A DNA stretch of 64,000 bases from an uncultured delta proteobacterium (GTDB taxonomy: Bacteria > Desulfobacterota > Binatia > UBA9968), in the NCBI GenBank assembly GCA_963745035.1, contig CAVUVW010000010.1, positions 32,001-96,000 on the forward strand. The letters run 5' to 3'. Within the stretch, counting starts at the first letter, position 1. Every line of letters starts with the position of its first letter. The translations under genes were made by a program, and so were the position numbers. The notes beneath the pieces are model-generated. The model had not been told where the DNA came from and searched no databases. It saw only the letters and a list, made by a program, of their open reading frames with translations. Positions 951-17,195 of this stretch are shown here, piece by piece.

Positions 951-952
951 CA

Positions 953-982
953 GCATTTGCCGATATTAATATCGGCAAATGC
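953..982. promoter_or_regulatory. perfect 30-bp palindrome, possible operator
   Basis: GCATTTGCCGATATT-AATATCGGCAAATGC; palindrome is certain, function inferred. Confidence 0.5.
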
Positions 983-1008
983 CTCTGCAAGGTGAGGGCC
1001 GTTTCGGC

Positions 1009-1141: not shown

Positions 1142-1189
1142 ATCAATCAGAGACAGCCGCTATAATCTGCCAACGCACGAGGATCAGAC

Positions 1190-2558
1190 ATGACGATGCA
1201 TCACCAGCTTGAAGCCTACGTCAAACAGAATCGCAAACGATTCGAAGATCTCCTCGGTCAGATGGTCAAGATTCCATCGATCAGTATGGATCCGGCCAAA
1301 GCAAATGACATGCGGCGCATGGCAACTCTTGCGAGGCAAGTATTGAGCGATGTCGGCGCCGAAGCGGAGATCGTGGAGACTGGCGGCTATCCCTTTGTGT
1401 CTGCTGGCTGGATGACTGGTGCACACTATCCTACGGTCACGGTCTATAACCATATGGATGTCCAGCCGGCACAAGAGCCAGAATGGCAACGGGATCCTTT
1501 TGCCTTCCAGAACGAGGGTGGCATCTATCGCGGCCGTGGAGCAACCGATGATAAGGGACCGGCGCTGTCGGCGTTGTTCGGTGCCCGTTTCGCGATCGAT
1601 CAAGGCGTGCCGATCAATATTCGCTTTCTCTGGGAGCTTGAAGAAGAGATCGGCAGTCCTCATTTTGCCGCCGGTCTCAAACAGCGAGCCGAGGTTCCCC
1701 GCCCCGATTCTGTGGTGGTCTCCGATACGATTTGGATTGCGAAAGGGCGTCCGGCCATGCCGTATGGATTGCGAGGATTGATTGGCGCGAGGCTGACCTT
1801 GAGAACCGGCAGCAAAGACGCCCATTCCGGGGTAACTGGTGGGGCCGCGAGAAATCCGTTAGCTGAATTGATGGAAGTTGCACAGGCTTGCGTCAATGCC
1901 AAAACAGGCGAAGTGAAAATCCCCGGCTTTTACAAGGACGTGATGAAGCCAACGAAAGAAGAGATCAAGAGCTTTCTCAAGTCAGGGTTTCAGGTCAAGC
2001 GCTTCAAAGCAGGCCTATGGATTCCACTCTCTCAGAACCGATGATCCGGCTGAAGTGATGCGCCGTATTTGGGCAGCTCCGACTTTCGAGATTCATGGCT
2101 TAACCGGCGGGTACAATGGGCCTGGCATCAAGACTGTGGTGCCGGGTCATGGCGAATTGAAGGTCAGCATGCGGCTCGTTCCGAACCAGACACCAGAGAA
2201 AGCCTTCGACCTGCTGAAGCGCTATGTGGCCAAGCTGAATCCGAACGTCAAAGTGGAAAGGGAAAGCATGCAACCTCCATTCAAAGGCAGTTTTGATGGG
2301 CCTTATGTCGAATGTGTGAAACGAGCGGCGAAGGCGGGATTCGGCAAAGAACCGGCTTTTATTCGTGAAGGGGGATCGATCGGTGCGGTCGTCACGATGC
2401 AGAAGGCCTGGAAAGTGCCGATTCTCTTTCTCGGCTTGAGTCTGCCCGAACATGGCTATCATGCACCGAACGAATACTTCGACTGGGGCCAAGCTTCAGG
2501 CGGAATGAAAGCGTTTGCGCATTATTTTTCGGAGCTCGCCAAAATGGAGAACCGTTAG
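1190..2558 (+). CDS. M20/M25/M40 metallopeptidase (dipeptidase-like), one frameshift near 2010
   Basis: YNHMDVQP, GRGATDDKG, EEEIGS, AHSG and HAPNE motifs across ORFs 1190-2044 and 2055-2558. Confidence 0.9.
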
Positions 2559-2599
2559 AAAAATTCATAATGGATAATGGAAAATTGATAATGGACACC

Positions 2600-2732
2600 T
2601 TCGACCAAATCTAGTGGGGCGGCAGCGGGCCCGTGCCGGCGATTTTTTTGAAAAGATCCACGTCTTGCGGATCGCGAGGAAGCTTCTTTAGGACTTCATC
2701 GAATTCATCCGGCGTGAGCGGGGAAGGCGCGT
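2600..2732 (-). repeat. diverged copy of the 3' end of the TctC-like gene (14332-14463)
   Basis: By-eye alignment: 5 substitutions in ~120 coding nt, all synonymous; includes the stop codon. Confidence 0.95.
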
Positions 2733-2734
2733 TT

Positions 2735-2838
2735 GGGTGGTTACCTGCGGCAACCCTACATCTTGGCGAGCAAGCCACTCCCGTGGCTGGCGATCACAGC
2801 ATCGAAGTTGTCGACCGCCGTGTTCACGTCCATGGCCC
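2735..2838 (-). repeat. diverged copy of the 3' end of the Rieske oxygenase gene (11612-11716)
   Basis: RAMDVNTAVDNFDAVIASHGSGLLAKM* versus RAMDVNTAVDNFDAMIASHGNSLVAKA*; shares the downstream GGTT(A/G)CC..GGCAACC hairpin. Confidence 0.95.
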
Positions 2839-3106
2839 GGCGCGCTGTTCAGTCGACCACCGATCGATCGGGAAGAGCGACCGCTGGAGCCACTGGAACA
2901 TCCGCCATCCGACGGGGTCGAGGGCGAGCGTCGACGCTGCAAGCGCAGCGGCCTCGTCCGAGATCGGTCGCCCGTTCGGCGCTATCACGTGGACCTCAGC
3001 CACCCGTTCGGCCATCACGAACCATCCGACCGATTCCTCCACCGACCGGCCGACCGTGACCAGGCCGTGGTTGCGCAGGATGCAGAACTCCTTGTTGCCG
3101 AGCGCG
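2839..3106 (-). repeat. diverged copy of the 3' end of the class II aldolase gene (5331-5599)
   Basis: ALGNKEFCILRNHGLVTVGRSVEESVGWFVMAERVAEVH... versus ALGNRKFCILRNHGLLTVGRSVEESVGWFVMAERVAEVH... Confidence 0.95.
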
Positions 3107-3507
3107 CGCCGAAGATTGAGGGCTGGTCCAGTGTTAATCCTACCGCTTACCGATGTGGTAAGGTCCTGAATTCGCTTCCGGTATCTTCGGTTAATTCTCG
3201 ATCTTTTCCCTGATCGCCCTGCCATCGGGCCAACTCCTCGGCCAAACCGCCAAATGGCTCGCCGATCACCCGGCTCCTGCATTCCCCGAGCCGTCAAAAG
3301 CAACACCGGGATTTTCCTCGATCAGAAAGGCAATTGACAACTCTCCGGTCCGGCGTTACTGCTCGGGCAGAACAAAAAGCTGGTTTGAATTTCTTATGCA
3401 TACGCGAGATCATGCAGCGTGGCCAATTCACGCGGGTGATCGTCCCGCCCGCCGAGGCGCCGGCGCCCCTATCGGCATAAAATAAAAAATAGAAAGTTGG
3501 ATTTCAG

Positions 3508-5063
3508 TTGCCCCAACAGGACCGTCTCAACATTGCCGTCTTCATCGACTTCGACAACATCGAAATCGGCGTCAAATCGACGCTCGGAGAGAATTTCGAC
3601 ATCGGCGCTATCCTCGACGCCTTGAAGGAGCGGGGTGAGGTGGTCACCAAGATCGCCTATGCCGACTGGACGCGCGCGGGCGAGTACAGCCGCCATCTCA
3701 CGCAGCACGCCATCCGGCTGGTGCAGCGCAATCTGACGCCCGGCGGCGACAAGAACGGGGCGGACATCAACCTGCCCTCGACGCCCTCGAAATGGCGTTC
3801 ACGCACCCGCACATCAACGCGTACGTGATCGTGGGCGGCGACAGCGACTTCCTCTCGCTGGTCGAGAAGCTGAAGCAGTACGACAAGAAGGTCTTCGTCG
3901 TGGGCGGCCGCGCTTTCACGAGCATTATCCTGCAGCGCAACTGCCACGAGTTCATCGCGTACGAGAACCTCACGGGTGGCCGTCGCTCCGCGTTCAAGGG
4001 TGGTCGCCCGGTGGCGCCCGCAGCCTCCAGCCCGATCGCGCAGGCGTTCCCGATCGTGCGCCGCGCGCTGAAGATCCTGTCCGACCGCGAAGTGTCGCCA
4101 CAGACGGGGCTCCTGAAGAGCACCCTGCTCCAGCTCGACTCGACCTTCTCCGAACGCAACTACGGTGCGTCATCGTTCCACGACTTCGTCGAAAAGCTGG
4201 CTCAGGCCGGACTCGCGCAATTGAAGCACACTGGCCGGAGCGTGATGGTCGAATTGAACGAGCAGTTCGAAGAAGGCGATCAGTCGACGGCACCGGCGGC
4301 CAAGGCCGAGGCTGCGCCGGAGACGCGGCGGGAGGTCGTTCGACCGCCTTCTCCCGAGGCGGACGCCGTCGAGGCACCTGTCGTCGCGGCGGCGCCCGTC
4401 ACGCCGGCGGGTGACCAGGCTGATGGTGTTCGGCTTGTCGGGAAAATTCTGACGGCCGCGACGACCGCGCGGTGGCCGATATACCTGCGCAATGTCAAGC
4501 AGCTGTTGCGCGCAGCCGATGGTGGTTTCGACGAGCGCCGCTACGGGTTCCCCGGCCTGATCGATCTGTTGCGTGCCTGTCAGCGCGAGGGCCTCGTGCG
4601 GCTCGAACGAGATCGCCGCGGCGGCCTGCTCGTCTTCAAGGGGCCGGTCCTGCAGCAGACGGGGGCGACCCGGTCTGCGGTCCCGCAACGGGACCCGGGC
4701 GCAGCGGAGTCCGACGACGTCGTCGAATCGATGGACGCCGGTGCGCGCGAGCAGCTGGAGGAACTTAATCAAGGCGAGCCGGGCAATCGGCTGGAGCCGC
4801 AGGCGGAGGCCGTTGACGACGAAAGGCGTCGGAGATCGGGCCCATTCCCATCGACACGACCGCGGAACCCCTCGGGCGCGCCAAGCCGCGCCGTCCGCGC
4901 GCCCGCGTCGGGGCCGCCACCCCGGCCGCCGCTCGTAGCACGCGAAAGACGACGGCGCCGAACAAGCCCGCGCCCCGTCCAACCACCCGATCGCGGAAGA
5001 CCGTCCGCTCCGACTCCGGCGGCAAAAACGAGAGCTGACGCGCAGAGGAGAGGGTTCCGCTGA
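3508..5063 (+). CDS. NYN (LabA/DUF88) domain protein with OST-HTH/LOTUS domains, frameshifted near 3775 and probably again near 4830
   Basis: IAVFIDFDN, KNGADI, GGDSDF motifs; FSERNYG and FDERRYG LOTUS-like repeats. Confidence 0.85.
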
Positions 5064-5250
5064 GGGTCAGACTTTTACGTCTGGACGATCTTGCTCAGCC
5101 GGTCTCCCGTCCTGTCGTATCATCGGCTTGCAACCGATCGCTCGGCGGTGCGAGCGCGCAGGCCAGGAGGGTCTGGCCTGAGTATTGAGTTATGGTCGTC
5201 ACTACCAACTTCAGGATCGGACCTGTGCAAATTCTCGAATTGAAAATTTA

Positions 5251-5330
5251 GGCGTGTTCACTTCCATGCGCGCACGCGATAAATGCCGCCGCGGGACGCG
5301 GGGAAGGGCTCAATGCCCTGCTGGAAATCG
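5251..5330 (-). repeat. second Rieske-gene remnant (matches ~11697-11780)
   Basis: FQQGIEPFPASRGGIYRVRA versus LQQGIEPFPASHGDIYRVRA; abuts the aldolase 3' end. Confidence 0.85.
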
Positions 5331-5340
5331 GGCGCGCTGT

Positions 5341-6129
5341 TCAGTCGACCACCGAGCGATCGGGGACGAGCGACCGCTGGATCCACTGGAACATCCGCCA
5401 TCCGACGGAGTCATGGGCGAGTGTCGACGCCGCAGCCGCAGCAGCCTCGTCGGAGATCGGTCGTGCGTTCGGCGCTTTCACGTGGACCTCGGCCACCCGC
5501 TCGGCCATCACGAACCATCCGACCGATTCCTCCACCGACCGGCCGACCGTGAGCAGGCCGTGGTTGCGCAGGATGCAGAACTTCCTGTTGCCGAGTGCGG
5601 CGGCGATGCGCTTGCCGCCATCGATCGAAAGCACCTCCACCTCCTCATCGTCGAAGAGGGCCTGGTCGAACACGAAGGCGCACGCCTCCTGACTGAGCGC
5701 GCGAAACGGCTCGACGTTGGCCGACCATGGCGTGCCGAAGGCGGTGTGGGTGTGAGATGCGCTCACGACATCGGGACGGGCAGCGAGCAGCGGATGGTGA
5801 ATATAGTAACCGGCCGTGTTGACGGCACCGGTCGCGTTGCCGTCGGCATCTTTCACTTCGCCACCGGGCCCGACCAGCACCAACTGGTGGACCGTCGCCT
5901 CGGCGAATGGGACACCCCAGTCGAGCAGCCAGAAGTGGTCGGTCAACTCGGGGTCACGGGCGGATACGTGGCCGTCGCCGAGCATCCCCCACCGCATCGC
6001 GCCGAAGATGCGGTATCCAAGCGCACACATCCGTTTGCGATGCGCCCGTTCGTCGGCAACCGAACGGACGGTGCCGTAGGGCTCGACCCCGTCGAACGGT
6101 GGATAGGGACTCGATGTCATGTCGTCCAT
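5341..6129 (-). CDS. class II aldolase/adducin family protein
   Basis: GDGHVSARDP, SHTHT, ILRNHG motifs. Confidence 0.9.
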   Translation of the reverse strand: MDDMTSSPYPPFDGVEPYGTVRSVADERAHRKRMCALGYRIFGAMRWGMLGDGHVSARDPELTDHFWLLDWGVPFAEATVHQLVLVGPGGEVKDADGNATGAVNTAGYYIHHPLLAARPDVVSASHTHTAFGTPWSANVEPFRALSQEACAFVFDQALFDDEEVEVLSIDGGKRIAAALGNRKFCILRNHGLLTVGRSVEESVGWFVMAERVAEVHVKAPNARPISDEAAAAAASTLAHDSVGWRMFQWIQRSLVPDRSVVD

Positions 6130-6214
6130 GATACCTCGCGCAATTCAGTCGGATGTACAGGCTGTTGAAAAAGGCCCACCTGCTTCGTCAATGCGCTCGA
6201 TCATCTCATCGGGA

Positions 6215-6290
6215 TCGGAGTACTGGAGTGACGAGAGTGGTGGAGTGATGGGTTTAAGACGCAATACTCCAGTACTCCATTACTCCAACA
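6215..6290. repeat. palindromic octamer REP-like repeat (TGGAGTRN / NYACTCCA); second copy at 55788-55860
   Basis: GGAGTACTGGAGTGA...TACTCCAGTACTCCATTACTCCA. Confidence 0.75.
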
Positions 6291-6908
6291 GTGTAGCAAT
6301 CCTTTTGTGGGTCATAGATAAAGTCCTCTTTAGTAAACAGTCCGCGCTTAAGGTTCGATGAATTATTGGGCTTAGGCACGTAAACCGTCATCCCGGACTG
6401 CTCGCAGGCTTTTACTTCTTCCCCGTTGTAGTAACCTCGGTCGGCCACTACCTGTAGAGTCTGTACGCCGAGCGTCTCTTGGGCCTTCTTTGCCATGGGT
6501 GGACAGTTGCCGTTAGCCGGTAACTTCGTTGGTGACCTCGTGCTCCACCACCAGCTTGTGCTTGTGATCCACCACGATCTGCACGTTGTAGCTGACCTCC
6601 ACCCCGTGCCCTACACGCATCGAGCGGCTCTGCGGATCTGTCAATGATATTTGACTCTCTACACTGCCTTCCAGATCGGTCTTCAGCTGCTCATACTGCG
6701 CTAGGCGCTGCTTGTATTGTTCGATCTTGTCCTGGAGTTGTTCTGGACTCACACCCCGTTGCCCGGCTACCTGCTGATCCTCTTGGTCCAATTCCTTAAG
6801 ATACTGATCGATCTTACCGTCGATCTCTTCTATCATCCGCCTAAGCTTTTTTTCTGTGAAGTTGCGCTTGGGACTATTCACGGCTCCAAATTTGCTGCCG
6901 TCCTCCAT
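6290..6908 (-). pseudogene. IS1182-family transposase internal fragment
   Basis: DGSKFGAVNS, SLTDPQSRSM, SYNVQ, ADRGYY, FTKEDFIYD motifs; truncated at both ends. Confidence 0.85.
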
Positions 6909-6997
6909 TTTGTTCGCGCGCCTCGCATCTAGACTTTTTTGAACAGCCTGGAATCAGGGTTCTTCAACAGACTGTTTACTTTGCTATTGCTTGCCGG

Positions 6998-7429
6998 TTA
7001 GGTGAGCACCACCAGCGAAAATGAGCGCCGACTCTGGAGCAACGTGAAATCGTCGCGGTTCCTAGTGTACAAGGTTGCGCCGAGGGAGCGGGCGCTGAGC
7101 GCCAGCAAGCAGTCGTTCACCAATGTCGGTAGTTTGCTTTTAAGGTTCGGTCTGGAGTGTAGTATCTCCGCCAAAATGGCTCCGGCATCTTTCCAATGGT
7201 TATGATCGGGCGTCACGATACGACCGACTTTCTCGAACGGTTGGAATAAGGTATCTACACGCTTTCTACCGGCGGGCGACTGGGCGCCGGCGAGCAATTC
7301 CTGAGCTACGATGGAGCTGAAGTAGATTCCTGGAGCCTCTTTGTCATAGAGCTCTCGGATGAAAGGAAGGGTTGTCCCGCTTTGGATGAGATCGATATAA
7401 AGATCCGTATCGATCAGATGCTTAGCCAC
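6998..7429 (-). CDS. vapC: PIN-domain toxin, type II TA
   Basis: HLIDTD, QELLAG, VNDCLLA, TRNRDDF PIN motifs. Confidence 0.9.
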   Translation of the reverse strand: MAKHLIDTDLYIDLIQSGTTLPFIRELYDKEAPGIYFSSIVAQELLAGAQSPAGRKRVDTLFQPFEKVGRIVTPDHNHWKDAGAILAEILHSRPNLKSKLPTLVNDCLLALSARSLGATLYTRNRDDFTLLQSRRSFSLVVLT

Positions 7430-7620
7430 TAAAAAACCTTTTCTACACCGCCTTTGCCAGCGACTTTTTCCAATGATCTGAGAATGTCTTTTCGGAAAAC
7501 TACCAGGTCTAAAGCAGCATCAATTGCCTCGGTTTCGGTCTTCGCGCCCAGAATTGATCTGACTCGCCGAATCTTTTTTTCGTCCAGATAGTAGTTTTTC
7601 CGCTTAAGGTTTGTTTTCAT
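7429..7620 (-). CDS. VapB-like antitoxin
   Basis: 63 aa, LGAKTETEAIDAALD, 1-nt overlap with vapC. Confidence 0.8.
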   Translation of the reverse strand: MKTNLKRKNYYLDEKKIRRVRSILGAKTETEAIDAALDLVVFRKDILRSLEKVAGKGGVEKVF

Positions 7621-7647
7621 GATAATCCCAGATACAGACGATTACTT

Positions 7648-7675
7648 ATTTTATACGTATCAACTTAGAGGTCAA
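7648..7675 (-). promoter_or_regulatory. sigma70-like promoter of the vapBC operon
   Basis: TTGACC-N16-TAAAAT overlapping the ATACGTAT palindrome. Confidence 0.5.
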
Positions 7676-7823
7676 GGCTGCCCGAAGAAGCCGATGGACG
7701 AATCCGTCAAGCCGACGCTTTTTTCAATGGATCGAATTGGGCTAATAGGTCGCATCTTTGCTTTCAGCGTTTGATTGCCTTTCGAAATTAAAGGCGCGGT
7801 CCCGGCTCGCCGGTAAAGTTCGT

Positions 7824-9290
7824 CTATGCGGTCGCAGCGGGCGATGCCCTTTCCAGGCCCAACTCATCGGCAACCGCTTGCTCGACAACGGTACCCTTGA
7901 AGAAGCCCGTATTGTTGCGCGTGTGCAGCATTGCGGCATTGGTGAACGTGAACTCGCGAAAATCCTGTTCGGTGACGAAGCCCTTCTCAACCATCTCAAA
8001 CGCTTCGGGTATGACATCCGCAAAGTCGGGGACGTCAAAGTGCGTGAAGTCGGAGCTGAACACCGGCCGCAGCCGAAAGCCCATCCGGGGATCGAAGGCC
8101 CATAGGGTCGTTCTGTCGTCGGCCTCGCAACCGAAATAAAAGTTGGTGGATAATGCCGCTCGGATATCGTCTTTTGACTCGATGCCTGCCGCCGCGAAAT
8201 CGTCGGCGATAAACTCCGGCCGCGCGAGTTCTTCGACGCTGCATTCCGGCCGCAAAAAGTCCAGGCTGTTCATGATCGCGTCGGCATTGGCTTTCACTCT
8301 CGCGTCGCCATACCGGGCGATAAATTGATGCATCTCGGCGATGCTGGTGGCGTGGGGGTTTTGCAGGCCGGCAGGGCGGCGCTTTTCCCAGTGTTCGATC
8401 AGGTCGGCGCACAACTGACAGGCCCAACTGACGCCGCCTTCCATGAAGCCGAAATTGAGGCTCGGGTAGCGCCGCAACAGACCGCCCAGGAAAACGCCCT
8501 TCGCGAAGGCGTGATTCGATGCGGCGAAGTGGCCGATATGGTTGTAGGTGAAGTTGCTGATGGAACTGCGATCCGGCCAACGGCCGCTGCCCGAGTGTTG
8601 GGTTACGGCGACGCCAAGATCAACGCAGCGCTGCCAGAATGGATCGTAATCAAGCGGGCTGTCGAGGGCGACGGTATCGACGTACCACGCGGCTTTCTTC
8701 GCATCGATGCCTTCCGCTGCACTCGGGATAGGACGCTCCTGGTTTCCCTTGAGCATGATCGCTCGGTAGCCCAGCTTGCCGACGGCGTATTCGAGTTCCT
8801 CGATCGCTTCCTCCGGCGTATGCATGGGAATAATCGCCACCGGGGCAAATCTTGCGGCATAGGGCGCGAACATGTCGACCGTCATCTTATTGTAGGCACG
8901 GGCGGCGGCCCGGCGCAGGTCATCCTGAGCAACGCCGTTGAATGCGAGCCCAAGGCTCGGATAGATCAACGCGAAGTCGATGCCCAACTCCGGCAATCGT
9001 TCGTTCAACAAAGCCGGCAGCAGCGCAGTGGCCTTGTCGAGGGTCTTGCTGGTGACGCCCCACCAGTTGCTTCGCCTGGTGCGATCGTGCTGGCGCTGCG
9101 ACCAGGTGGAGCGGTACCACGCGTGAGTGCGCTGCCAGAGCGCTCTCATCCGGTCGACCGATTGAGTGCCGCCCACTTCACGCAAGTACTCGAGAAAGAC
9201 CGGCACCGGTTCCAACCAGTGGCCGTCGCCGTCGATCACGGGGTGTTTCAGGCCGGCGTGTATTTCAGCGGCGCGATTACTCACCGTCAC
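7824..9290 (-). CDS. amidohydrolase family protein (amidohydro_2)
   Basis: VIDGDGH, FMEGG, FSSDFTHFD motifs. Confidence 0.9.
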   Translation of the reverse strand: MTVSNRAAEIHAGLKHPVIDGDGHWLEPVPVFLEYLREVGGTQSVDRMRALWQRTHAWYRSTWSQRQHDRTRRSNWWGVTSKTLDKATALLPALLNERLPELGIDFALIYPSLGLAFNGVAQDDLRRAAARAYNKMTVDMFAPYAARFAPVAIIPMHTPEEAIEELEYAVGKLGYRAIMLKGNQERPIPSAAEGIDAKKAAWYVDTVALDSPLDYDPFWQRCVDLGVAVTQHSGSGRWPDRSSISNFTYNHIGHFAASNHAFAKGVFLGGLLRRYPSLNFGFMEGGVSWACQLCADLIEHWEKRRPAGLQNPHATSIAEMHQFIARYGDARVKANADAIMNSLDFLRPECSVEELARPEFIADDFAAAGIESKDDIRAALSTNFYFGCEADDRTTLWAFDPRMGFRLRPVFSSDFTHFDVPDFADVIPEAFEMVEKGFVTEQDFREFTFTNAAMLHTRNNTGFFKGTVVEQAVADELGLERASPAATA

Positions 9291-9320
9291 GGCTCCTCTG
9301 TCGCGCGCAAAATTTGAGGC

Positions 9321-9872
9321 TTAGGCGGCGCCGCGAAAGTTGGGGCGCTTCTCTACCACCATGGTGCCTGCTTCGCTGTTGTAGCGGCCGCGCGCGATGT
9401 TTTCTAGATTCGTGCCGGTGACACGGATGAAACGCGCGCCGGCGGGATAGGCGATGGAATGGATGGCGCGGTTCTGGAAGATACCCGACTTGCCGCGCTC
9501 CATACGATAGGTCTTTACCTTTTCTATTGTCGCTTTGCCGGGAACCGAGCCGTCATCCGTACGCTTCCACTCGCTCATTTCGGTATGTTTGACCGCCTGG
9601 CCGTAGATGGCCCACGAATCACCGTGATCGTGCGGCCCGCCGGCATAGTCCCGGTCCATGACATGCGCCAAGATCTGGAAGCCCAGCTCCGGGTCCTCGT
9701 AGAGTAGATTGGCGCCGACGGCGGCGTTCGGCCCGCAATGGGCGGCGACGAAATCGTCGTTCATCAGCAAGTCCGGCAATTTTTTTCGCACCGTCTCGCG
9801 CCCCGCCGGACCCGGGTCGGCCTCGAGGATGCGGCGGCAGTCGGCGGCAAACTCATCGAGCGTGTAAGCCAT
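9321..9872 (-). CDS. cysteine-dioxygenase-like cupin protein
   Basis: PHDHGDSWAIYGQ...AIHSI; start taken at MAYTLDEF. Confidence 0.7.
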   Translation of the reverse strand: MAYTLDEFAADCRRILEADPGPAGRETVRKKLPDLLMNDDFVAAHCGPNAAVGANLLYEDPELGFQILAHVMDRDYAGGPHDHGDSWAIYGQAVKHTEMSEWKRTDDGSVPGKATIEKVKTYRMERGKSGIFQNRAIHSIAYPAGARFIRVTGTNLENIARGRYNSEAGTMVVEKRPNFRGAA

Positions 9873-9935
9873 GCTATTTCTCCTGACGCAGTGGAAATTC
9901 AATCCATTTTTTGACGCGGGCTGCTAGTGATTGAC

Positions 9936-11456
9936 TTAGCTTTTGATTTTCATGTCCGCGGCAAGAATCTTACCGTCCGGCGAGCCCTTCCAGATGACGT
10001 TGCGCTGCACACCGTAAAGTTCCGCAAGCGTATAGAGCGGCGCGAACGGGACGTCTTCCATGAGAATGCGGCCGGCCTGATGCAGAATCGCGACGCGCTT
10101 CTTCTGGTCGCCGGTTCGCTGCTCCTCGTCGATGAGCTTGTCGAATTCCGGATTGTTGTAGTTGATGCGCTTGGAACCGCCGGTGCGGAAGTATTGCTCG
10201 AAATAGACATCGGCGTCGCTGCCGTTGCTGCCGGCGTAGTAGAACGGCAGCTTGCCGCCGTTGACGCCGTCCTTCCCCCAGTAGATGGCGTACTCCTGCG
10301 GCACCAGCTCGACTTTGATGCCGACTTTGCCCAGTTGATCGGCGATCACTTCGCAGACCTCCTTGCCTTTGAGGTGGCGGTCCGGGGCCAAATAAAGTTT
10401 GACCTCGAGTCCGTTCGGGTAACCGGCCTGGGTGAGCAGTTCGCGCGCTTTCTTCGGATCGTAAGGATAGCGCTTGATTTTCGGATCGAAGCCGACCCAA
10501 TTCGATCCCAGCGGGCCATTCACCACCGCGCCGTGGCCGTCGTAGATGTGCTTCAACATGACATGGGGATCGAGCGCATAGTTGATCGCCTGGCGCAGAA
10601 GCTTGTTGTCGAAGGGTTTCATCTGCACATTCATGCCGAGAAAGTACATGCGAAAGCCGACTACCTTTTGGATCCGAACGCGCGGATGCTTGGCGATGCG
10701 GTCGACATCTTCGATGGGCACGTTGCTGATCAGATCGGCCTGCCCGGCCAGCAGGCCGGCCACCCGCGCCGCTTCTTCCTTGACGCCTTTGATGATGACC
10801 TCGCGGATCTGCGGCTTGGCCCCCCAGTATTCGTCGTTGCGCCGCAGAACCAGGTTGCCGCCGCGCTGCCAGCTCACGTATTTGTACGGCCCGGTGCCGG
10901 CCGTGGCCTTGTCCAGATCGTCGCCGTATTCCTTCGAGAGAATAAACCGGGTCTCCAGTCGGGTCAGCAACAGCGCATTGGGACTCTTGGTCGTAAGCAC
11001 CACCGTGTAATCGTCGGGCGTCTCGACCTCGACGCCTTGCACATAGGCGCCCTGCAGGCTGCGCTTGTCATTTTGCAGTTTGTCGATGGAGTAGGCGACG
11101 TCTTTCGAGGTAAGCGGCGCGCCGTTGTGAAAGCGCACGCCTTTGCGTAAATGAAAAATCCACTTGCGGCCCTGAAACTCCCACGACTGAGCCAGCACGC
11201 CGACGTATTCGTTGCGGTCGTAGTCCATCTGGATCAGCGGTTCGATGATGTGGCGCCAGATGCCCGTGATTCCGCCGCCGCTGTAGCCGTAGGGATGGAG
11301 CGAGTCGAGACCGACGCCTTGATAAATAGCGACGCGATCTTTGGTTGCCGCCGACGCCTTCGACGCCAAAGCGGGCGTGAAAAGTGTTCCCAATCCCAGA
11401 GCCGCGCTCTGTTGCAGGAACCGGCGCCGATGGATTGCCGCACTGTATTTACGCAT
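9936..11456 (-). CDS. ABC transporter substrate-binding protein, family 5 (peptide/nickel), Tat signal
   Basis: HRRRFLQ Tat motif; FHLRKGVRFHNG, GTGPY, LRQAINYALD. Confidence 0.9.
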   Translation of the reverse strand: MRKYSAAIHRRRFLQQSAALGLGTLFTPALASKASAATKDRVAIYQGVGLDSLHPYGYSGGGITGIWRHIIEPLIQMDYDRNEYVGVLAQSWEFQGRKWIFHLRKGVRFHNGAPLTSKDVAYSIDKLQNDKRSLQGAYVQGVEVETPDDYTVVLTTKSPNALLLTRLETRFILSKEYGDDLDKATAGTGPYKYVSWQRGGNLVLRRNDEYWGAKPQIREVIIKGVKEEAARVAGLLAGQADLISNVPIEDVDRIAKHPRVRIQKVVGFRMYFLGMNVQMKPFDNKLLRQAINYALDPHVMLKHIYDGHGAVVNGPLGSNWVGFDPKIKRYPYDPKKARELLTQAGYPNGLEVKLYLAPDRHLKGKEVCEVIADQLGKVGIKVELVPQEYAIYWGKDGVNGGKLPFYYAGSNGSDADVYFEQYFRTGGSKRINYNNPEFDKLIDEEQRTGDQKKRVAILHQAGRILMEDVPFAPLYTLAELYGVQRNVIWKGSPDGKILAADMKIKS

Positions 11457-11484
11457 TAAAGTTCTCCCGCGCTGAATTGAGCCC

Positions 11485-11514
11485 GTTATATTCAGCCTGC
11501 GGCGAACCTGTCAA
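11485..11514 (-). promoter_or_regulatory. sigma70-like promoter
   Basis: TTGACA-N18-TATAAC ~30 nt upstream of the ATG at 11456. Confidence 0.55.
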
Positions 11515-11634
11515 CGAAATTCTCTGAAGCGGCAAGCGTTGTGAATGACATCGCGAGCGGCGCCCGCGTTCGTGGATTGCGCTTGGGGAATCCACTTTGC
11601 CGCGAGCGGTCCGAGTGGTTGCCTGACGGCAACC

Positions 11635-12903
11635 CTACGCCTTGGCGACCAAGCTGTTCCCGTGACTCGCGATCATCGCGTCGAAGTTGTCGACCGCCGT
11701 GTTCACGTCCATGGCGCGCACGCGATAGATGTCACCGTGGGATGCGGGGAAGGGCTCGATGCCCTGCTGGAGCTCACGGGCCAGATTCAGCAATCGCTTG
11801 CGCGCCGTGATGATCGCGAGGTCGCTGGTGCCGAGGTGCTCCTTGCGGCGGTCGTAGATGGGCCCCATGCTTTCCTGAATCGCGCGATCCTGATCGTTGA
11901 CGCCCCAGATGCCGGTGTAGGTCGTAGTGCGCTGGATCTCGCGATCGAGCAGGTAGTCGTTCTCCATGTTGCGCTTCGGGATGAACGTGCCGGGGATCAA
12001 CTCAGGCGGAAACGCGCGACCCGTGCGGCGTATTGCGAGGTCTTCGTCGATCAGCGGCCGATCCGGGTGGTAGGAAATATAAAAGGTCATGGTGCGATTG
12101 TCGTCGACCGGAATCCAGGCTCGTCCGCCGGCCGGGAAGCGCATGAACGGAATCAGGCTATAGGTCGGGAGCAGCGCCTGGGTCACCCGCCAGTTGTAGG
12201 TTCCTTCGCCTACTATGCGACGGGCGCCGTAGCGGAAGCCGTAGTCGGTGTCGTTCACGACGATCTTGGGTGCCCCGTCCCGCGCTTTCAGCCTGGGATC
12301 GATGGTGGTGCCCTCACTCGGGGAAGCCGCCGGGTTCAGGTAGGTGTGCAGGAACGAGGCGTGGGAGCTGTCGATGTCGCCCTCGTACCCCTGGAGATAG
12401 TTGGTTTCCTGGTACCACTTCGACACCGAGCGGTGGCTATCGGGGACTTGGGTCCACTCCAATTGAGGCAGCTCTGCGCGGAGATGTTGGGGCCCCATGT
12501 AAACCCAAATCAGGCCGCCGTGGACGGCCGTCGGGTAAGCCGTGATGTGAATCTTGTCTTTGAAGTTGCTTTCGGCGGGTTCGGACGGCATGTCGACGCA
12601 GTTGCCGTCGACATCAAATTTCCAGCCATGATAGACACAGCGAATGCCGCACTCCTCGTTGCGCCCGAAGTAGAGGGACGCGCCGCGGTGCGGGCAGTGA
12701 GCCTCGACGACCCCGATTTTGTTATTTGAGTCGCGAAAGGCGACCAGATCCTCACCGAGCAGGCGCAGGCGCACGGGCGGGCAATCCGCTTTGGGCAACT
12801 CGTCGGCCAGCATCGCCGGCAGCCAGAATCGCCGAAATAGCTCGCCCATGGGCGTTCCCGGCCCGACACGGCACGCGAATTCGTTGTCTTCTTTGCTTAA
12901 CAC
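11635..12903 (-). CDS. Rieske non-heme iron oxygenase alpha subunit (phthalate dioxygenase/LigXa-like)
   Basis: CPHRG...CVYHGW Rieske motif; DSSHASFLH; QDRAIQESMG. Confidence 0.92.
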   Translation of the reverse strand: MLSKEDNEFACRVGPGTPMGELFRRFWLPAMLADELPKADCPPVRLRLLGEDLVAFRDSNNKIGVVEAHCPHRGASLYFGRNEECGIRCVYHGWKFDVDGNCVDMPSEPAESNFKDKIHITAYPTAVHGGLIWVYMGPQHLRAELPQLEWTQVPDSHRSVSKWYQETNYLQGYEGDIDSSHASFLHTYLNPAASPSEGTTIDPRLKARDGAPKIVVNDTDYGFRYGARRIVGEGTYNWRVTQALLPTYSLIPFMRFPAGGRAWIPVDDNRTMTFYISYHPDRPLIDEDLAIRRTGRAFPPELIPGTFIPKRNMENDYLLDREIQRTTTYTGIWGVNDQDRAIQESMGPIYDRRKEHLGTSDLAIITARKRLLNLARELQQGIEPFPASHGDIYRVRAMDVNTAVDNFDAMIASHGNSLVAKA

Positions 12904-13233
12904 AGCGGCTCCCGTCTATTAAAAATTTAAAGCACTTTTTTCTCTCCGGTGATTTATCCCTGAACCGGCGAAGGTGTCAATCGTCGGAGAGTTGACTGAA
13001 ATTCACCCTGTCGCTCGGGACTAATCTTCTTGCGGCTCGCTCAAAAATTGGAGACGTCTGAATATTGATTATTTAGTCAAACGCTGGCCGAGCTTCTTTT
13101 TTCGCTCATCTCTTGAGCACCTAGTTGCAATAGTGAACGAGTCGTAGGGAAAAACTTTACTTTCATCATGCAATGTCCGCTTGATCTAGAATCAAGTTCG
13201 ATTCCGCTGCATTGACAGCCAACGGAGGGCAAG

Positions 13234-13422
13234 CTACTGCGGCGACCAGGCGCGGATCTCCGAACGCCCGATGATCACGCTATTGTTTTGTGCGACTTCT
13301 TGCGACATCCGCTCAAGCAACGTCGCAAGATCGACCTCGGCCGCTGTCGCCACGCCGAACTTCTCCATTGCCGGCAGCAGAGTGGCGGCAAGTTCGGCAA
13401 TCGCCCGTAACCACTCTCCGGT
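13234..13422 (-). pseudogene. 3' fragment of a class I SAM methyltransferase-like gene
   Basis: Manual translation ...LLPAMEKFGVATAAEVDLATLLERMSQEVAQNNSVIIGRSEIRAWSPQ*; no 5' part; family assigned from memory. Confidence 0.55.
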
Positions 13423-13431
13423 CCTTGTCCC

Positions 13432-14310
13432 GCCGCGTCACGCTGATTAGCGCATGCGTGAAAAGACTCCGGACCCCTTTTTCCAATTACGGTCGCCGCT
13501 ATTTACTCTGTGCGGAAACACCGGTCATCGCTTGCTCCAGCGCCGTGCGCGCAGCCGCTAAAGTTTGCGGATCGGCCAGCTCGGGACGTCCCGTCCCATA
13601 CGGCGGTTGGGGCGCGTATTCCAGGAGCAGCTCGACGACTCGTCCCATGCTCTGGCCGGCCCATCGCCCGGCCATTGCGATGCCGAAGTCGATGCCCGCT
13701 GTGACGCCGCCTCCGGTGAGTCGATTGCGGTCGACGCAGATACGTTCGGTGCTGGGCTCGGCGCCAAATTGGCTGAGGGCTTCCCGGGCACCCCAGTGCA
13801 CGGCGGCACGGTAGCCCCGCAACAGTCCAGCCGCCCCGAGCAGCAGCGAGCCGGTGCAGACACTGCACACCCAGCGGGCGCGGGATCCGCGATCCGCTAG
13901 AAAGGCGATTGTGGCGGAATCACTCAACAGGTCCAACGTCGGCTTCGCGCCACCGCCGACAAAGAGGACGTCTGGATCGGTCCAGGTATCCTCGAAACGG
14001 TGGGTCGCTTGCACGCTGAGGCCGCAGTCCGTGGGCACCGCGCCGGAATGCTGCCAGGCGTACTGAACTTCGAAGCCTGCCAAGACACTCCACGCCTGCA
14101 TGGGACCGACCAAGTCCAAAAGGGTCATGCCGGGATATACGAGGGACAACACTTTCATTGCCGCGCGCTCCTTTGAGTCAACAAAATCGTTCTGTGCCGC
14201 GAGGTCGGTTCCGGGGTCGGGCCTGAGTTATTGACTTATTGCTCATCGCTGATGCGATCTCGCGGCGTCACGCTGTGCGTGAAAAGATCCCGCCCCCTTT
14301 TCCCAACTAC
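13432..14310. repeat. diverged direct repeats (13432-13490, 14261-14310) flanking the DJ-1 gene
   Basis: GCGTCACGCTG...TGCGTGAAAAGA.TCC.G.CCCCTTTT.CCAA.TAC at both sites. Confidence 0.7.
13499..14158 (-). CDS. DJ-1/PfpI family protein (isonitrile hydratase-like)
   Basis: TLLDLVGP, SVCTGS, TGGGVTAGID, LEYAPQPPY motifs. Confidence 0.9.
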   Translation of the reverse strand: MKVLSLVYPGMTLLDLVGPMQAWSVLAGFEVQYAWQHSGAVPTDCGLSVQATHRFEDTWTDPDVLFVGGGAKPTLDLLSDSATIAFLADRGSRARWVCSVCTGSLLLGAAGLLRGYRAAVHWGAREALSQFGAEPSTERICVDRNRLTGGGVTAGIDFGIAMAGRWAGQSMGRVVELLLEYAPQPPYGTGRPELADPQTLAAARTALEQAMTGVSAQSK

Positions 14311-14341
14311 AATTGAATCTAGCGAGCGTGTTTCGACAAAT

Positions 14342-15424
14342 CTAGTGGGGCGGGAGCGGGCCCGTGCCCGCGATTTTTTTGAAAAGATCCACATCTTGCG
14401 GATCGCGGGGAAGCTTCTTTAGGACTTCATCGAATTCATCCGGCGTGAGCGGGGAAGGGGCGTCGCCGGTGAGCTTCTTATAATCGTTGGAAAACTCAGG
14501 GTCCTTATAGGCTGCGGTGATGGCATCGCGCAGCGTCCGAACCCGCTCCGGCGGGGTGCGCGGCGGAGTGATGAAGGTCGCGCCGGCGATACTGAAGGAC
14601 CGATAGATCTCCAGCAGCCGCCGTTCCCTGTCCGTCCTGGCAAAAGATTCGAGCTCGGGCAGATGAGCGAAGCGCGGATGCGTGCTGGCTTTGGGGATCT
14701 GCAAGATCGCGTGAAAGTCGACGAGTTTCTTTTCGATCCATTCGGGATTGCGCCGCAGCAACGAAGGGGCGACGTTCACTCTGGCGTCGAGTTCGCCGCG
14801 CAAGAGCGCCTGATCCATCTCGGGTCCCGAGTATCCGGTGACGAATTTAGGCTCGTTCAGGCGCAGAATATACGCGAACAATCGGGCGAGCGTATGGATC
14901 ACATGGCCCACCGATTGCGCGCCGATTCGTATTCCCGGGCTGGCGCGGAGACGATCCAATGTGCCTAGATTGGACTCCCGTCTGGTGAGAAACACATAGT
15001 GGTCCTCGGATTCGGCGGTACCGAAGAAACTAAATTTGTCGAGCTCGTAATCCACTCCAGGTTCATTGAGGGCTGCGGCCCGGACGAAGCCGCCCGGCGG
15101 ATAGCCGAGCGTCAGGCCGTCGGGACGAGCGGTTCGAAAGATGTAGTTCGCGGCCTTTCGGCCGCCGCCGCCAGGCATGTATTCCGTCACGATATTCGGC
15201 TGTCCAGGAATATGCTTTTTCAAATACGGCAATATCGACTTCAGCCGCAAATCTCCCAACCCTCCCGGCTCCTGGCCAGCGATCACGGTGATGGTCTTGC
15301 CTTGATAAAAGAGCGCCTGCGGTAAGACCGGGTGCGGCTGGCATAAGAGGAAGAACGCCGATGCGCACATGACTGCGCCATTACTAACTTTGCGATATTT
15401 TCCAAAGAGCATCAGAACTCTCAA
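14342..15424 (-). CDS. TctC/Bug-like tripartite tricarboxylate transporter substrate-binding protein (true start may be ~15370)
   Basis: FYQGKTITVI, PGGGG, PDGLT, GYSG, RGELD, PPRTPPERV. Confidence 0.85.
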   Translation of the reverse strand: MRVLMLFGKYRKVSNGAVMCASAFFLLCQPHPVLPQALFYQGKTITVIAGQEPGGLGDLRLKSILPYLKKHIPGQPNIVTEYMPGGGGRKAANYIFRTARPDGLTLGYPPGGFVRAAALNEPGVDYELDKFSFFGTAESEDHYVFLTRRESNLGTLDRLRASPGIRIGAQSVGHVIHTLARLFAYILRLNEPKFVTGYSGPEMDQALLRGELDARVNVAPSLLRRNPEWIEKKLVDFHAILQIPKASTHPRFAHLPELESFARTDRERRLLEIYRSFSIAGATFITPPRTPPERVRTLRDAITAAYKDPEFSNDYKKLTGDAPSPLTPDEFDEVLKKLPRDPQDVDLFKKIAGTGPLPPH

Positions 15425-15425
15425 A

Positions 15426-16652
15426 CTAACCGGCTTTATAATGGGTCGAGGCTAAGACCTGCTCGACGATCGCCTCGGCGAACTGCGGATCGTTGATGTG
15501 ACAGTCGAACTCGGTCACCGGCACGGACGCCGGCAGGGCCTTCTTCAGCGCTTCCGAGAACACCGGGCACAGCGACGGGTCGTGCAAATGCCCTTCGGGG
15601 CTGTCGTGGTGCGAGAAGCCCTTCAGCGGCACGAAGAACGAGACCGGCCCCTTGGCGCTGCTGATCAGGCCGCCCATGTGCTTCGCCAACTTCTGCAGTT
15701 CGCCAGCCTCGGTGCGTACCGCGGTAATTGCCTGGTTGTGGATGTGATAACGCTTGTTCGGGAATTGTGTCTTCGCCATGTCGATGGGTCCGGACAGCAT
15801 GAAGTCCGCGTTGCCCGGCGCGAAGATCACCGGCACGCCCTTCTCGAGCGCCGCTTTGGCGCGGTCCGGGCCGGCGCTGAACATGCCGTTGTTCAGATAA
15901 TCGTTGATCTCGACCAGCGACACGTCGACGACCGCGCTGACGTCGCGCTCCCGCACGATCTGGTCCATCGCCATGCCGCCGGTACCGAGCGTGTGGAACA
16001 CCATCACCTCGTAGCCTTTGCTCTCCAGCGACTTGCGCACGCGCACGGTGCAGCGATCGGTGGTGCCGAGCGTCGTCATCGCGATCAGCGGCTTCGTTTC
16101 CGCGCGCACGGGCGAGTAGCTCTTCGCCATCGCGGCGGTGGCGATCGCCGCGTTGCGGAACGCGTCGCGGGTGATGCTGTTGAGCCCGGCGATGTCGCAT
16201 ACCGGGTTCACCATGATGATGTCCTTCGCGCCGACGAACGGCCGGGTGAAGCCCGATGCCATCGTCGACACCATCACCTTCGGCAGGCCGTACGGGAACG
16301 CCTGCATCACGACGCTGCCGAGCGTGGTGCCCATCGATCCGCCCACACCGATGATGCCGGCAATGCCATGCTTTGACTGGGCCTCCAGAGCGCACTTGAC
16401 GGCGCCTTCGATCATCACTGCCTGGCACTTGCCTTCATGACGAAGGTCGCGAACCTCCTGGATCGTCTTGCCTGCCGCCGCGGCGACGGTCTCCGGCGCG
16501 ATCTCGACGTTCGGATCGGTCGAATCGCGGATGCTGGCGTCGAGGTGAACGACCTCCACCCCTTCGGCCTCCAGTGTCTGCCGGACGAATTGCGCTTCCA
16601 CTGCCTTGGTGTCGAGGGTCACGATCATCAGAACCTTGGGTTTGCTGCTCAT
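15426..16652 (-). CDS. Tm-1-like ATP-binding domain protein (UPF0261)
   Basis: TLDTK, GGSMGT, PKVMVST, FHTLGTGG, HINDPQFA. Confidence 0.88.
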   Translation of the reverse strand: MSSKPKVLMIVTLDTKAVEAQFVRQTLEAEGVEVVHLDASIRDSTDPNVEIAPETVAAAAGKTIQEVRDLRHEGKCQAVMIEGAVKCALEAQSKHGIAGIIGVGGSMGTTLGSVVMQAFPYGLPKVMVSTMASGFTRPFVGAKDIIMVNPVCDIAGLNSITRDAFRNAAIATAAMAKSYSPVRAETKPLIAMTTLGTTDRCTVRVRKSLESKGYEVMVFHTLGTGGMAMDQIVRERDVSAVVDVSLVEINDYLNNGMFSAGPDRAKAALEKGVPVIFAPGNADFMLSGPIDMAKTQFPNKRYHIHNQAITAVRTEAGELQKLAKHMGGLISSAKGPVSFFVPLKGFSHHDSPEGHLHDPSLCPVFSEALKKALPASVPVTEFDCHINDPQFAEAIVEQVLASTHYKAG

Positions 16653-16787
16653 GGCCTGTCTCCTGTCGAATGAAAGAGCACTTCAAATCGCCCACGCCGA
16701 CGGTAATCGGCACCGACACCGTCTCGGCGCCCTTCAGATGATGGAAATCCGCTTTTGGGAGGCTCGGCGACGGTACATCTGCATAGA

Positions 16788-17195
16788 TTACACAGTGCGA
16801 CCCATGTCGAAGACGATCTCCCGTGAGATCTTCCCGTTGCGCATCTCAAAGATGTGAACCAGCCGCATTTCAATCTTGCTGCCGATTGGAAAATGCCAGT
16901 ATCCATCTTTCGCCACCTCGAACGTGACGATGCTGTCATCCACCACACGCTCTTCGGTAGCGAAGCGCTGAAGAAACTGGAACTTTACATTACGCATGGA
17001 CGCAAAGAGTTCCCGGTAATTCTTGGCAGTAGCTTCCTTCCCGGAAAAAGATCGATTAAGGCCATTCGGGGCAGGTGCTTCCCAAACGATGTCGTCGGTG
17101 AAAGTCTTGAGCGCCGTTTCGACCTCATTCAGCGCTTCGCTGTGGAAGTGGCTCTCCACAGCCGCCAGATTTTGGGCTATTTGATCCCTATCCAT
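16788..17195 (-). CDS. SnoaL-like/NTF2 family protein
   Basis: TFTDDIVWE, LVHIFEMRNGKISRE; GGAGGG RBS before MDRDQ. Confidence 0.8.
   Translation of the reverse strand: MDRDQIAQNLAAVESHFHSEALNEVETALKTFTDDIVWEAPAPNGLNRSFSGKEATAKNYRELFASMRNVKFQFLQRFATEERVVDDSIVTFEVAKDGYWHFPIGSKIEMRLVHIFEMRNGKISREIVFDMGRTV

Follow-up and report, generated by a model that had tools for sequence, protein, structure and literature searches.

Displacement of gene 3' ends by successive insertions has been described in bacteria for toxin loci. The available sections of Jackson et al. (2009; PMC2935791) describe rhs genes that are followed by downstream direct repeats of varying length, for which circular intermediates are proposed. 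In the Vibrio cholerae type VI secretion system (T6SS), the available sections of Kirchberger et al. (2017; PMC5361080) propose sequential displacement by a homology anchor combined with an illegitimate joint, similar to homology-facilitated illegitimate recombination (HFIR); according to its authors, the same displacement had also been hypothesised for Rhs and contact-dependent inhibition (CDI) loci. In a study of E. coli conjugation (PMC3240628), the part of the paper available reports that 56 of 60 clones carried a duplicated homologous gene end of 109-950 bp, resulting from single crossover of circularised, trimmed molecules, and that four of 60 were true HFIR, which is an insertion with a deletion. 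Here, a related arrangement is described at metabolic genes in a 64,000-nt stretch (the window) of the metagenome-assembled genome (MAG) of an uncultured delta proteobacterium (Desulfobacterota; Binatia; UBA9968; GCA_963745035.1). Displaced 3' ends (tails) of a class II aldolase gene, a Rieske oxygenase gene and a TctC-like gene are stacked against each other downstream of the full genes. With moderate confidence, these stacked tails are the scars of repeated homology-anchored, recombinase-independent insertions, each with one illegitimate joint, at a hot spot common to related soil lineages.

As far as the available sections of the rhs paper go, an rhs locus is like the window in that a full gene is followed by co-oriented fragments which keep the 3' end (silent in rhs), in the proposed lateral acquisition and homologous recombination, and in the lack of a dedicated recombinase. 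In rhs, however, the conserved core is repeated, the 3' tips that are displaced encode non-homologous toxin domains, accompanied by immunity genes, and the array belongs to one gene. In the window, the displaced ends are homologous alleles (87-96%) of metabolic genes, the cargo consists of unrelated whole genes, and the genes alternate so that a nest results. The tails are 87-96% copies of the ends of aldolase, Rieske oxygenase and binding-protein-like genes, and not displaced toxins of the Rhs/CDI kind. In the T6SS modules, according to the available sections, insertions also push older material, including the effector 3' end, downstream, the polarised array is read as a history, and an integrase was not found; unlike here, the modules are toxin/immunity loci only, with a fixed upstream anchor and no nesting across anchor genes, and their persistence is explained by selection for retained immunity genes. 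The E. coli circle integrants, in the part of that paper available, have end duplications of 109-950 bp flanking the insert, and the tails here, at 54-353 nt, are in a similar size range; the integrants differ in being single events with identical repeats in a suicide-plasmid laboratory construct. Integrons and clusters of attC sites lacking integron-integrases (CALIN) are similar to the window in their polarised, largely co-oriented arrays, their toxin-antitoxin (TA) cassettes and the displacement of old units by new ones; this locus, in contrast, has no IntI and no attC-like structure common to the unit ends, and its repeats are coding gene ends. Phage 21 and e14 integrate site-specifically at icd and supply a replacement 3' end for the gene. 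Such elements leave the target gene intact and, on the distal side of the insert, a displaced 3' end that has diverged mostly synonymously, as is seen here, but they depend on an integrase and fixed attachment (att) boundaries, both of which were looked for here and not found. A literature search brought up the toxin-locus precedents; among the results listed, none described nested tails displaced from metabolic genes, which is not proof of absence. The displacement process is already in print for toxin loci; this case differs in that alleles of metabolic genes are displaced, that the cargo is unrelated and that the genes alternate.

The window is C10:32001-96000, where C10 (CAVUVW010000010.1) is a 204-kb contig and the contig coordinate is the window coordinate plus 32000; coordinates without a contig name refer to the window. 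The source genome (G000) is assembled in 28 contigs, the largest of 1.97 Mb, and is 92.6% complete with 5.8% contamination. Genes were called with a simple and crude codon-bias caller (6781 genes, 79% coding). Repeats were detected by self-comparison of window positions 1-17000 and by BLAST against the genome, and protein families were assigned with Pfam and NCBIfam. A DNA search of 40 relatives was followed by analysis of fetched regions (from G003, G004, G014, G015, G018 and others). The metagenome evidence consists of short contigs; these belong to four metagenomes of soil or rhizosphere that come from different studies. The TctC tail is called T2, the Rieske tails R1-R3 with a further piece RA, the aldolase tails A2 and A3, and the tail of a DedA gene D2.

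Table 1. Full genes, displaced tails, cargo and other features of the window, and displaced-tail loci on other contigs of G000
Feature	Position	Strand or orientation	Description
T2, displaced 3' end of TctC-like gene	2597-2732	-	Last ~40 codons, stop TAG, ~10-16 nt downstream flank; 95-96% to 14332-14463
R3, displaced 3' end of Rieske gene	2732-2839	-	Last ~27 codons, stop TAG, hairpin, ~35 nt flank; 87% to 11614-11718
A2, displaced 3' end of class II aldolase gene	2839-3106	-	~85 codons, stop TGA, ~10-17 nt flank; 92% to 5331-5599
RA, second Rieske-tail piece	5250-5344	-	Directly after the full aldolase stop; Rieske coordinates ~11697-11790; 81-89%
Full class II aldolase gene	5341-6129	-	Pfam Aldolase_II, E 9e-33; NCBIfam PRK06208
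Full Rieske/LigXa-type oxygenase	11614-12903 (gene 11635-12903)	-	Pfam; hairpin GGTTGCC-TGAC-GGCAACC just past the stop
Full TctC-like gene, 360 aa	14342-15424	-	Pfam TctC below cut-off (19 vs 27 bits); no NCBIfam match
AT-rich ATAATGGA direct-repeat element	2560-2600	+	Between the convergent M20 peptidase and T2
Innermost cargo	3107-5249	+	Non-coding stretch with a ~115-nt repeat (3285-3400), then NYN + OST-HTH/LOTUS gene 3508-5063
IS1182-family transposase remnants, two open reading frames	6254-6908	-	NCBIfam NF033551, E 5e-23 and 8e-16, partial
VapBC-like toxin-antitoxin pair	6998-7620	-	PIN toxin; VapB antitoxin match weak
Amidohydrolase_2 family gene, cargo	7824-9290	-	Pfam
193-aa open reading frame, cargo	9321-9902	-	No family match
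SBP_bac_5 solute-binding protein gene, cargo	9936-11456	-	Pfam
DJ-1/PfpI gene, cargo of the outermost pair	13499-14158	-	Pfam
Displaced-tail locus	C14:13888-14139/16746-16995	direct	95%
Displaced-tail locus	C14:23225-23458/29582-29815	direct	97%
Displaced-tail locus	C14:621715/623218	direct	92%
Displaced-tail locus	C22	direct	89%
Displaced-tail locus	C19:250665-250826/251693-251853	direct	94%

The self-comparison found three direct repeats, with BLAST E values of 1e-27 to 3e-106, which correspond to the tails T2, R3 and A2 (Table 1); the match of A2 to the aldolase gene has E 4e-106, and that of T2 covers 2606-2732 vs 14337-14463 (96%) in the self-comparison. These tails abut without a gap, are on the same strand as the full genes, and follow an order that is reversed relative to the full genes. 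An initial annotation of the window, made from the sequence alone, had described these reverse-ordered, abutting tails, and its boundaries were confirmed to within a few bases. The core match of R3 (2748-2839 vs 11627-11718, 87%) is extended to 2732 when the Rieske copies are aligned with their flanks, and the downstream flank of R3 is common to the other Rieske copies. A2 corresponds to positions 137-182 of Pfam Aldolase_II. By eye, 2-5 nt are possibly common at the T2/R3 and R3/A2 joints. The annotation also stated that each tail keeps its stop codon. All three stop codons are present in the sequence, but that of A2 is out of frame due to a 1-nt indel at 2874, about 8 codons before the stop. 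Contigs of three metagenomes have the extra base at 2874, and similar 1-nt differences occur at 2010 and 3773; therefore, the indel could be an assembly error. The 5 coding differences between T2 and its gene are all synonymous, as first reported, and all in the third position. In the family searches the TctC label had only a Pfam hit below cut-off behind it, and the gene is referred to here as TctC-like. A plus-strand hairpin with a T-run is located within the TctC tail (14356-14381, with its copy at ~2620-2645). The hairpin in T2 is just downstream of the convergent peptidase gene and could serve as a terminator for it.

The nest of three tails is part of a wider mosaic on C10, which in all carries 4 Rieske tails and a split piece, 3 aldolase tails, and tails of a DedA-like and of one further gene. 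Additional Rieske tails are located at C10:22060-22192, 23 nt past the stop of a MoCoBD-type dehydrogenase gene, and at C10:31106-31201, 14 nt past the stop of a cupin gene. The third aldolase tail (A3) is at C10:19861-19977. A DedA/VTT-domain gene is full at C10:50987-51823, and its tail D2 (C10:21910-22053) abuts the Rieske tail at 22060. A further coding tail (reading frame ending ...FPFVTESLVKKPVVL*) has four copies, one of which begins at the DedA stop. Nesting is perfect for four of the pairs: aldolase-A2, Rieske-R3, TctC-T2 and DedA-D2. R1, R2 and R3 are each followed by the tail of another gene, giving three two-layer stacks that all involve the Rieske gene. The identity among these three tails is about 94%, which is higher than with the resident tail, and they differ from the latter by shared substitutions. 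Within the window the three-tail nest stands as annotated; the IS1182 remnants lie inside the nest, and a fourth piece, RA, had been missed. RA overlaps R3 by about 20 nt in Rieske coordinates, so that a single ~190-nt Rieske tail is split around the segment with the NYN gene and the aldolase fragment. Equivalently, the joint between aldolase end and Rieske tail occurs twice, once with a 70-nt deletion.

The boundaries of the Rieske copies range over 18-35 nt on the downstream side and 79-155 nt on the upstream side. The duplicated end of one gene differs in length as well: for Rieske it measures 79-155 nt in the G000 copies but 353 nt in G004, and the aldolase tails are 110 and 268 nt long. 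The possibility that the Rieske tail is a mobile mini-element or attC-like site was rejected, as its boundaries vary and distant homologues (~50% identity) align up to residue 422; because of this alignment, the tail is the native C-terminus. The genome has five clusters of the AT-rich ATAATGGA element, four of them on C10 (window 2560-2600; C10:14787, 31057 and 50732). The C10 clusters are all in one orientation and each adjoins a displaced tail, and the element is multi-copy in sister genomes.

A genome-wide census compared the ends of the 4131 genes of at least 600 nt with the whole genome. Gene ends that had more than 4 truncated hits were left out, and copies within 60 kb were counted. 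The truncated copies of 3' ends were downstream and direct in 21 cases, upstream and direct in 8 and inverted in 0; for 5' ends, 9 copies were upstream and direct, 10 downstream and direct, and 1 inverted. A strict set was limited to at least 86% identity and excluded three paralogue arrays (C2, C17 and C14:385-412 kb). It holds 11 tails that are downstream and direct (12 with R2, which was lost to the filter) and 0 that are upstream and direct, while the heads number 1 upstream and 3 downstream, all direct. The excluded arrays (C2:1-26000, C17:177000-202000 and C14:385000-412000) consist of ~1-kb paralogues with the last ~150 nt 80-89% conserved, and they confound any displaced-tail search. 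The polarity claimed for the array was borne out by this census, with tails direct and downstream of the full gene.

The gene-cargo-tail structure is present at five loci outside C10 at an identity of at least 86% (Table 1). The simplest case is on C19, where the cargo behind a cystathionine gamma-synthase-family gene is an 866-nt Phd-type antitoxin/PIN-like pair, beyond which the end of the gene is repeated over 160 nt. The mutual homology of the two ends stops at stop +1, which fits alleles with different downstream neighbours. A 62-nt element (C19:252061-252122) downstream of this displaced tail has many copies across the genus (80-90%).

The divergence of the tails suggests alleles. Pooled over 14 tail/gene pairs, the differences at codon positions 1/2/3 are 32/29/77, a count that is indicative only, as it includes non-independent pairs, three of them with the resident Rieske tail in common. 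The differences between the DedA tail and its gene are synonymous in 3 of 3 cases. Much of the tail divergence may have arisen under purifying selection, with the same limit on the codon counts. The resident aldolase tail and A2 were compared over 267 columns with the orthologue of G018, the closest species found (96.6% in the remainder of the gene). A2 and G018 agree against the resident tail at 10 sites, the resident tail and G018 agree against A2 at 8, and the resident tail and A2 agree against G018 at 3. The two tails are no closer to each other than either is to G018; therefore, they fit alleles from different lineages and not a recent in-place duplicate, as would result from import of a diverged allele and its cargo by way of homology within the gene. 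The displaced tail on C19 is 94% identical to its own gene and 84-86% to other species, and the resident tail there is 89-91% identical to other species; that event had a close donor, with decay afterwards. The initial suggestion that T2 is a second allele instead of a decaying copy is consistent with the codon positions.

The same structures are found in related species. The aldolase gene is directly downstream of the full Rieske gene in G004 and G014; therefore, a Rieske-aldolase operon is probably the arrangement that came first. In G004, a Rieske tail of 353 nt, 97% identical to the full gene of that genome, is located 6.5 kb downstream, with a cargo of the aldolase, three other genes and the NYN gene; the NYN module beside this tail is 80% identical to that of the window. 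Two additional Rieske tails in G004 are 11 and 24 kb downstream, and each of the three is in direct orientation. In G003 a single Rieske tail follows the full gene at a distance of 2.3 kb, and in G015 the NYN module (94% to window 3362-5041) is 1.1 kb from the full Rieske stop. For the anchor gene of C19, G045 has the full gene followed by cargo and a 306-nt tail (93%), then further cargo, an 88-nt piece, the TA module and a 54-nt piece. The TA module of G045 is 87% identical to that of G000 and is the layer furthest from the gene. G018 has two fragments of this gene 5.4 and 9.3 kb downstream, and G015 has a 128-nt tail that runs into the TA module, with the full gene not found. Across species the tails of the C19 gene are 54-306 nt long. 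A copy of a locus in the fetched region of G004:C4 (17657-17921 vs 9351-9546 + 10907-10981) is missing a gene body of ~1.36 kb, and its upstream region is contiguous with the last ~40 nt and the flank.

Metagenome contigs join R3-type Rieske ends to window positions 9890 or 6976 (9890 to 2748, 6976 to 2762), an A2-type aldolase end to 9299 (9299 to 2839), and a 158-nt amidohydrolase tail to the NYN upstream region at 3319. Therefore, the same modules are differently arranged in other strains.

The locus was described initially as integrase-free, which agrees with the domain searches. Pfam scans of 38 open reading frames in C10:14-52 kb found no integrase. The genome has 20 matches to the tyrosine recombinase domain (PF00589), none of which is on C10, and there is none on the cluster-bearing contig regions of G004, G018, G014, G003 and G015. 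No serine recombinase (PF00239) was found on C10, C14 and C19. The absence of reverse transcriptase was also claimed, and this holds except for the sole match (RVT_1) in the 92.6% complete genome, which falls in one broken locus, on C13. An origin of the tails by retro-insertion of transcript 3' ends was rejected, as it would have to proceed without an intact reverse transcriptase. By Pfam there are no phage or conjugation genes among the cargo, which consists of metabolic genes and TA pairs. Inspection by eye of the sequence after 27 stop codons showed neither a motif nor a hairpin common to them, and an Rfam scan of C10:12001-36900 gave no match. A scan for terminators found 8 sites vs 13.5 expected, with none on the minus strand at gene ends. 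An integron or CALIN was rejected on the absence of PF00589 from C10 and of a common post-stop hairpin in the 27 stops, with no dedicated attC model run. Tandem Y1 (IS200-like) transposase genes are located at C10:26477-27841, and the second is fused to a DnaA_C helix-turn-helix. Neither the IS1182 remnants nor the Y1 genes border a tail, and the Y1 genes are ~7 kb from the nearest one. The Y1 region (C10:26413-27841) contains a 394-nt tandem repeat (98.7%).

The joints between cargo and tail tend to avoid the interior of genes. None of the 18 joints mapped (0/18) interrupts a real cargo gene, although the joints are not independent and the gene caller is crude. Nine are no more than 35 nt past a co-oriented stop, 6 of these after a called gene and 3 after the stop of another tail. 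Three more are 65-175 nt past a co-oriented stop, 4 are upstream of a divergent gene (for A3, the DJ-1 fragment from C10:20012), and 2 are in long non-coding stretches. Selection, preferential breakage at gene ends and a dedicated mechanism are all candidates for this placement.

What is observed is the anatomy, the polarity, the lack of recombinases, the allelic divergence and the repeated occurrence, both at further loci and in further species; from this we infer by which route, from which donors and in which order the insertions took place, as follows. Incoming DNA from a related lineage would bring, besides extra genes, its own allele of a resident gene. Homologous (RecA-type) recombination would occur within or upstream of the resident gene, and the other end would form an illegitimate joint within the final 70-350 nt of the resident copy. 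The product would be a full gene with an imported 3' end, the cargo, the old 3' end and the old downstream DNA. The likeliest route would be a single (Campbell-type) crossover of a trimmed, circularised fragment. Alternatively, linear HFIR with the illegitimate joint inside the shared gene would give an identical product that is indistinguishable by sequence. Repeated insertions using the earlier-imported genes would then build the nest of aldolase, Rieske and TctC-like ends. The initial annotation favoured an HFIR-like route. Classical HFIR gives a deletion, whereas the recipient gene ends are duplicated here; since the duplications in PMC3240628 came from circles, as far as the available part of that paper shows, the circle route fits the anatomy better. 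The displaced gene itself had also been proposed as the anchor, but the crossover may have been anywhere upstream. G000 has two intact Ku matches and one split match, and Ku is present in only 1 of 14 control genomes; ComEC and DprA are also present. Because of these genes, DNA uptake and end-joining are plausible, but at most that.

Several observations weigh against insertion by homology-anchored recombination. Although 3' ends are favoured, 5' ends are affected too, as some heads are located upstream of full genes; a looser megablast search gave 9 rows of heads upstream and direct, including C13:927841, C4:89659, C24:49987 and a tandem duplication in a Y1 transposase gene. In G044, a 195-nt tail copy of the C19 gene is found on the upstream side of the gene itself. 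When all copies on the contig are counted, the TctC pair is crossed by both Rieske-R1 and Rieske-R2, and the DedA pair by aldolase-A3. These crossing pairs demand added assumptions, either that the incoming DNA was already scarred or that gene copies were lost, and the split between RA and R3 requires an extra event. The likeness of R1, R2 and R3 could mean that they were copied from one another. Empty states, which the annotation had suggested looking for in related MAGs, and donor arrangements were sought for the three window events in 40 relatives, and none was found. In these relatives, neither the M20 peptidase nor the TctC-like gene has a close match at the DNA level. With ~79% of the genome coding, the avoidance of genes by the joints is a strong trend which the simple model does not predict. 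The joints also rest on assembled contigs and not on junction-spanning raw reads.

A stricter form of the model was proposed initially, in which linear HFIR always uses the displaced gene as anchor, each new gene anchors the next insertion, and the stack is a faithful last-in-first-out chronology. The perfect nesting of the four pairs fits this form, as does the series in G045, in which the shared TA layer is furthest from the gene. However, strict last-in-first-out order is limited to the pairs seen in the annotation because other pairs on C10 cross, and the split Rieske tail is a further departure from a readable chronology. The identities of the tails are 92%, 87% and 96% from the inside out, so divergence does not track depth, and it is the innermost tail that carries the indel. 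HFIR as measured, in the available part of PMC3240628, leads to deletions, and the duplications (56/60) came from circles. It is therefore unlikely that the strict serial form is correct.

A doubtful extension of homology-anchored insertion, based on the placement of the joints, is that this genus grows its flexible islands mainly without integrases, using the final few hundred bases of resident genes as landing pads with joints directed to the first ~35 nt post-stop, for example by Ku-dependent circularisation. If this is true, whole genes would act as cassettes without attC, a dedicated break or joining mechanism would act at gene ends, and the islands would hold a partly readable fossil record of successive acquisitions.

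It is also improbable that an unrecognised dedicated mechanism moves gene-end cassettes, either a trans-acting recombinase or nuclease that cuts post-stop or Y1/HUH hairpin processing, with the homology of the tails serving only as a landing site. The absence of joints in cargo genes (0/18, with 9 within 35 nt past a co-oriented stop) and the re-joining of modules at gene ends in other strains would be explained by such a mechanism, and the tandem Y1 transposase genes on the same contig and the perfect 7-bp hairpin after the Rieske stop also speak for it. The gene ends, though, have no common motif or structure and no terminator-like hairpins on the minus strand, the Rieske boundaries vary, the Y1 genes are far from the nearest tail with no Y1-type ends seen, and there is no Rfam match.

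Decayed integrative elements, in which the pairs would be attL/attR sites at gene 3' ends with a replacement tail carried on the element and the integrases since lost, are very unlikely. The product has the same shape, with an intact gene, cargo and a diverged tail with mostly synonymous changes. Nevertheless, a tyrosine recombinase is absent from C10 and from the surroundings of the clusters in five sister genomes, the G000 loci are without a serine recombinase, the repeat length for one gene varies (Rieske 79-353 nt) unlike that of an att site, and the cargo of metabolic genes and TA pairs is without phage or conjugation genes.

Local duplication and decay, by which the fragments would be the remains of paralogues or of segmental duplications after deletion, is highly improbable. 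The identity among R1, R2 and R3 exceeds that of each with the resident tail, and the G004 locus copy without its gene body keeps the last ~40 nt; but every fragment has an exact 3' end with the 5' part lost, the order is reversed vs the full genes, the aldolase pair has only 3 shared derived sites vs G018 against 10 and 8 for the other patterns, and the differences are in excess at third positions.

An assembly artefact, in which strain variants were stitched so that the gene end of a second strain follows the cargo of the first, is just as improbable: the MAG has 5.8% contamination, several 1-nt indels vs metagenome contigs suggest residual consensus errors and the joints are known from assembled contigs, but the assembly has 28 contigs of up to 1.97 Mb, the same architecture is present in independent assemblies of other species (10-50 contigs), contig X1 from an independent run (2159-2630) bridges the border of peptidase and T2, tail-type joints are found in unitig-like contigs of other samples, and three abutting fragments of 108-268 nt are impossible from one mis-join.

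The remaining features of the window concern the cargo and the neighbouring genes. The NYN + OST-HTH/LOTUS gene has a 1-nt frameshift near 3773, between ...INL and ALD..., and the frame is restored by an extra C in some metagenome contigs. In the four soil metagenomes, the depth of window 3301-4400 is 5-10x that of its neighbours. The NYN module was considered as a multi-copy mobile element and rejected, since it is single copy in G000; the high depth is probably a result of conservation across many organisms. The ~115-nt element at 3285-3400 is genus-wide, with several copies per genome in sister species (76-80%), and contains a TTGACA-type promoter-like site. Other strains skip the IS1182 segment, as metagenome contigs join 6188 to 6915, 6254 to 6905 and 6290 to 6903.

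The 5' part of the DJ-1/PfpI gene (13861-14158) has an inverted 299-nt copy (88%) at C10:20012-20310 that adjoins the third aldolase tail, and this is the only inverted gene fragment of the mosaic. A ~50-nt element, TTGGAAAAGGGG...CTTTTCACGCA...GCGTGACGC, occurs after both the DJ-1 and TctC-like stops on the minus strand (~13410-13498 and 14250-14340). The M20/M25/M40 peptidase gene on the plus strand is split into two open reading frames (1190-2044 and 2055-2558). The split is either a true frameshift or an assembly indel; the base at 2010 is missing from contigs of three metagenomes. The closest named record, a Deltaproteobacteria bacterium MAG, has only the Rieske gene in common.

Most acquired bacterial genes are located in hot spots without recognisable mobile machinery, and their route of entry is largely inferred. 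The scars described here are direct sequence evidence of one such route, a homologous crossover in a shared gene combined with one illegitimate joint, and they recur at the same genes in several species of an uncultured soil lineage. The avoidance of gene interiors by the joints is a testable lead on where DNA breaks or is selected. If the route is general, displaced tails would be searchable and could be used to count integrase-free acquisitions and to determine their relative order and donor lineages.

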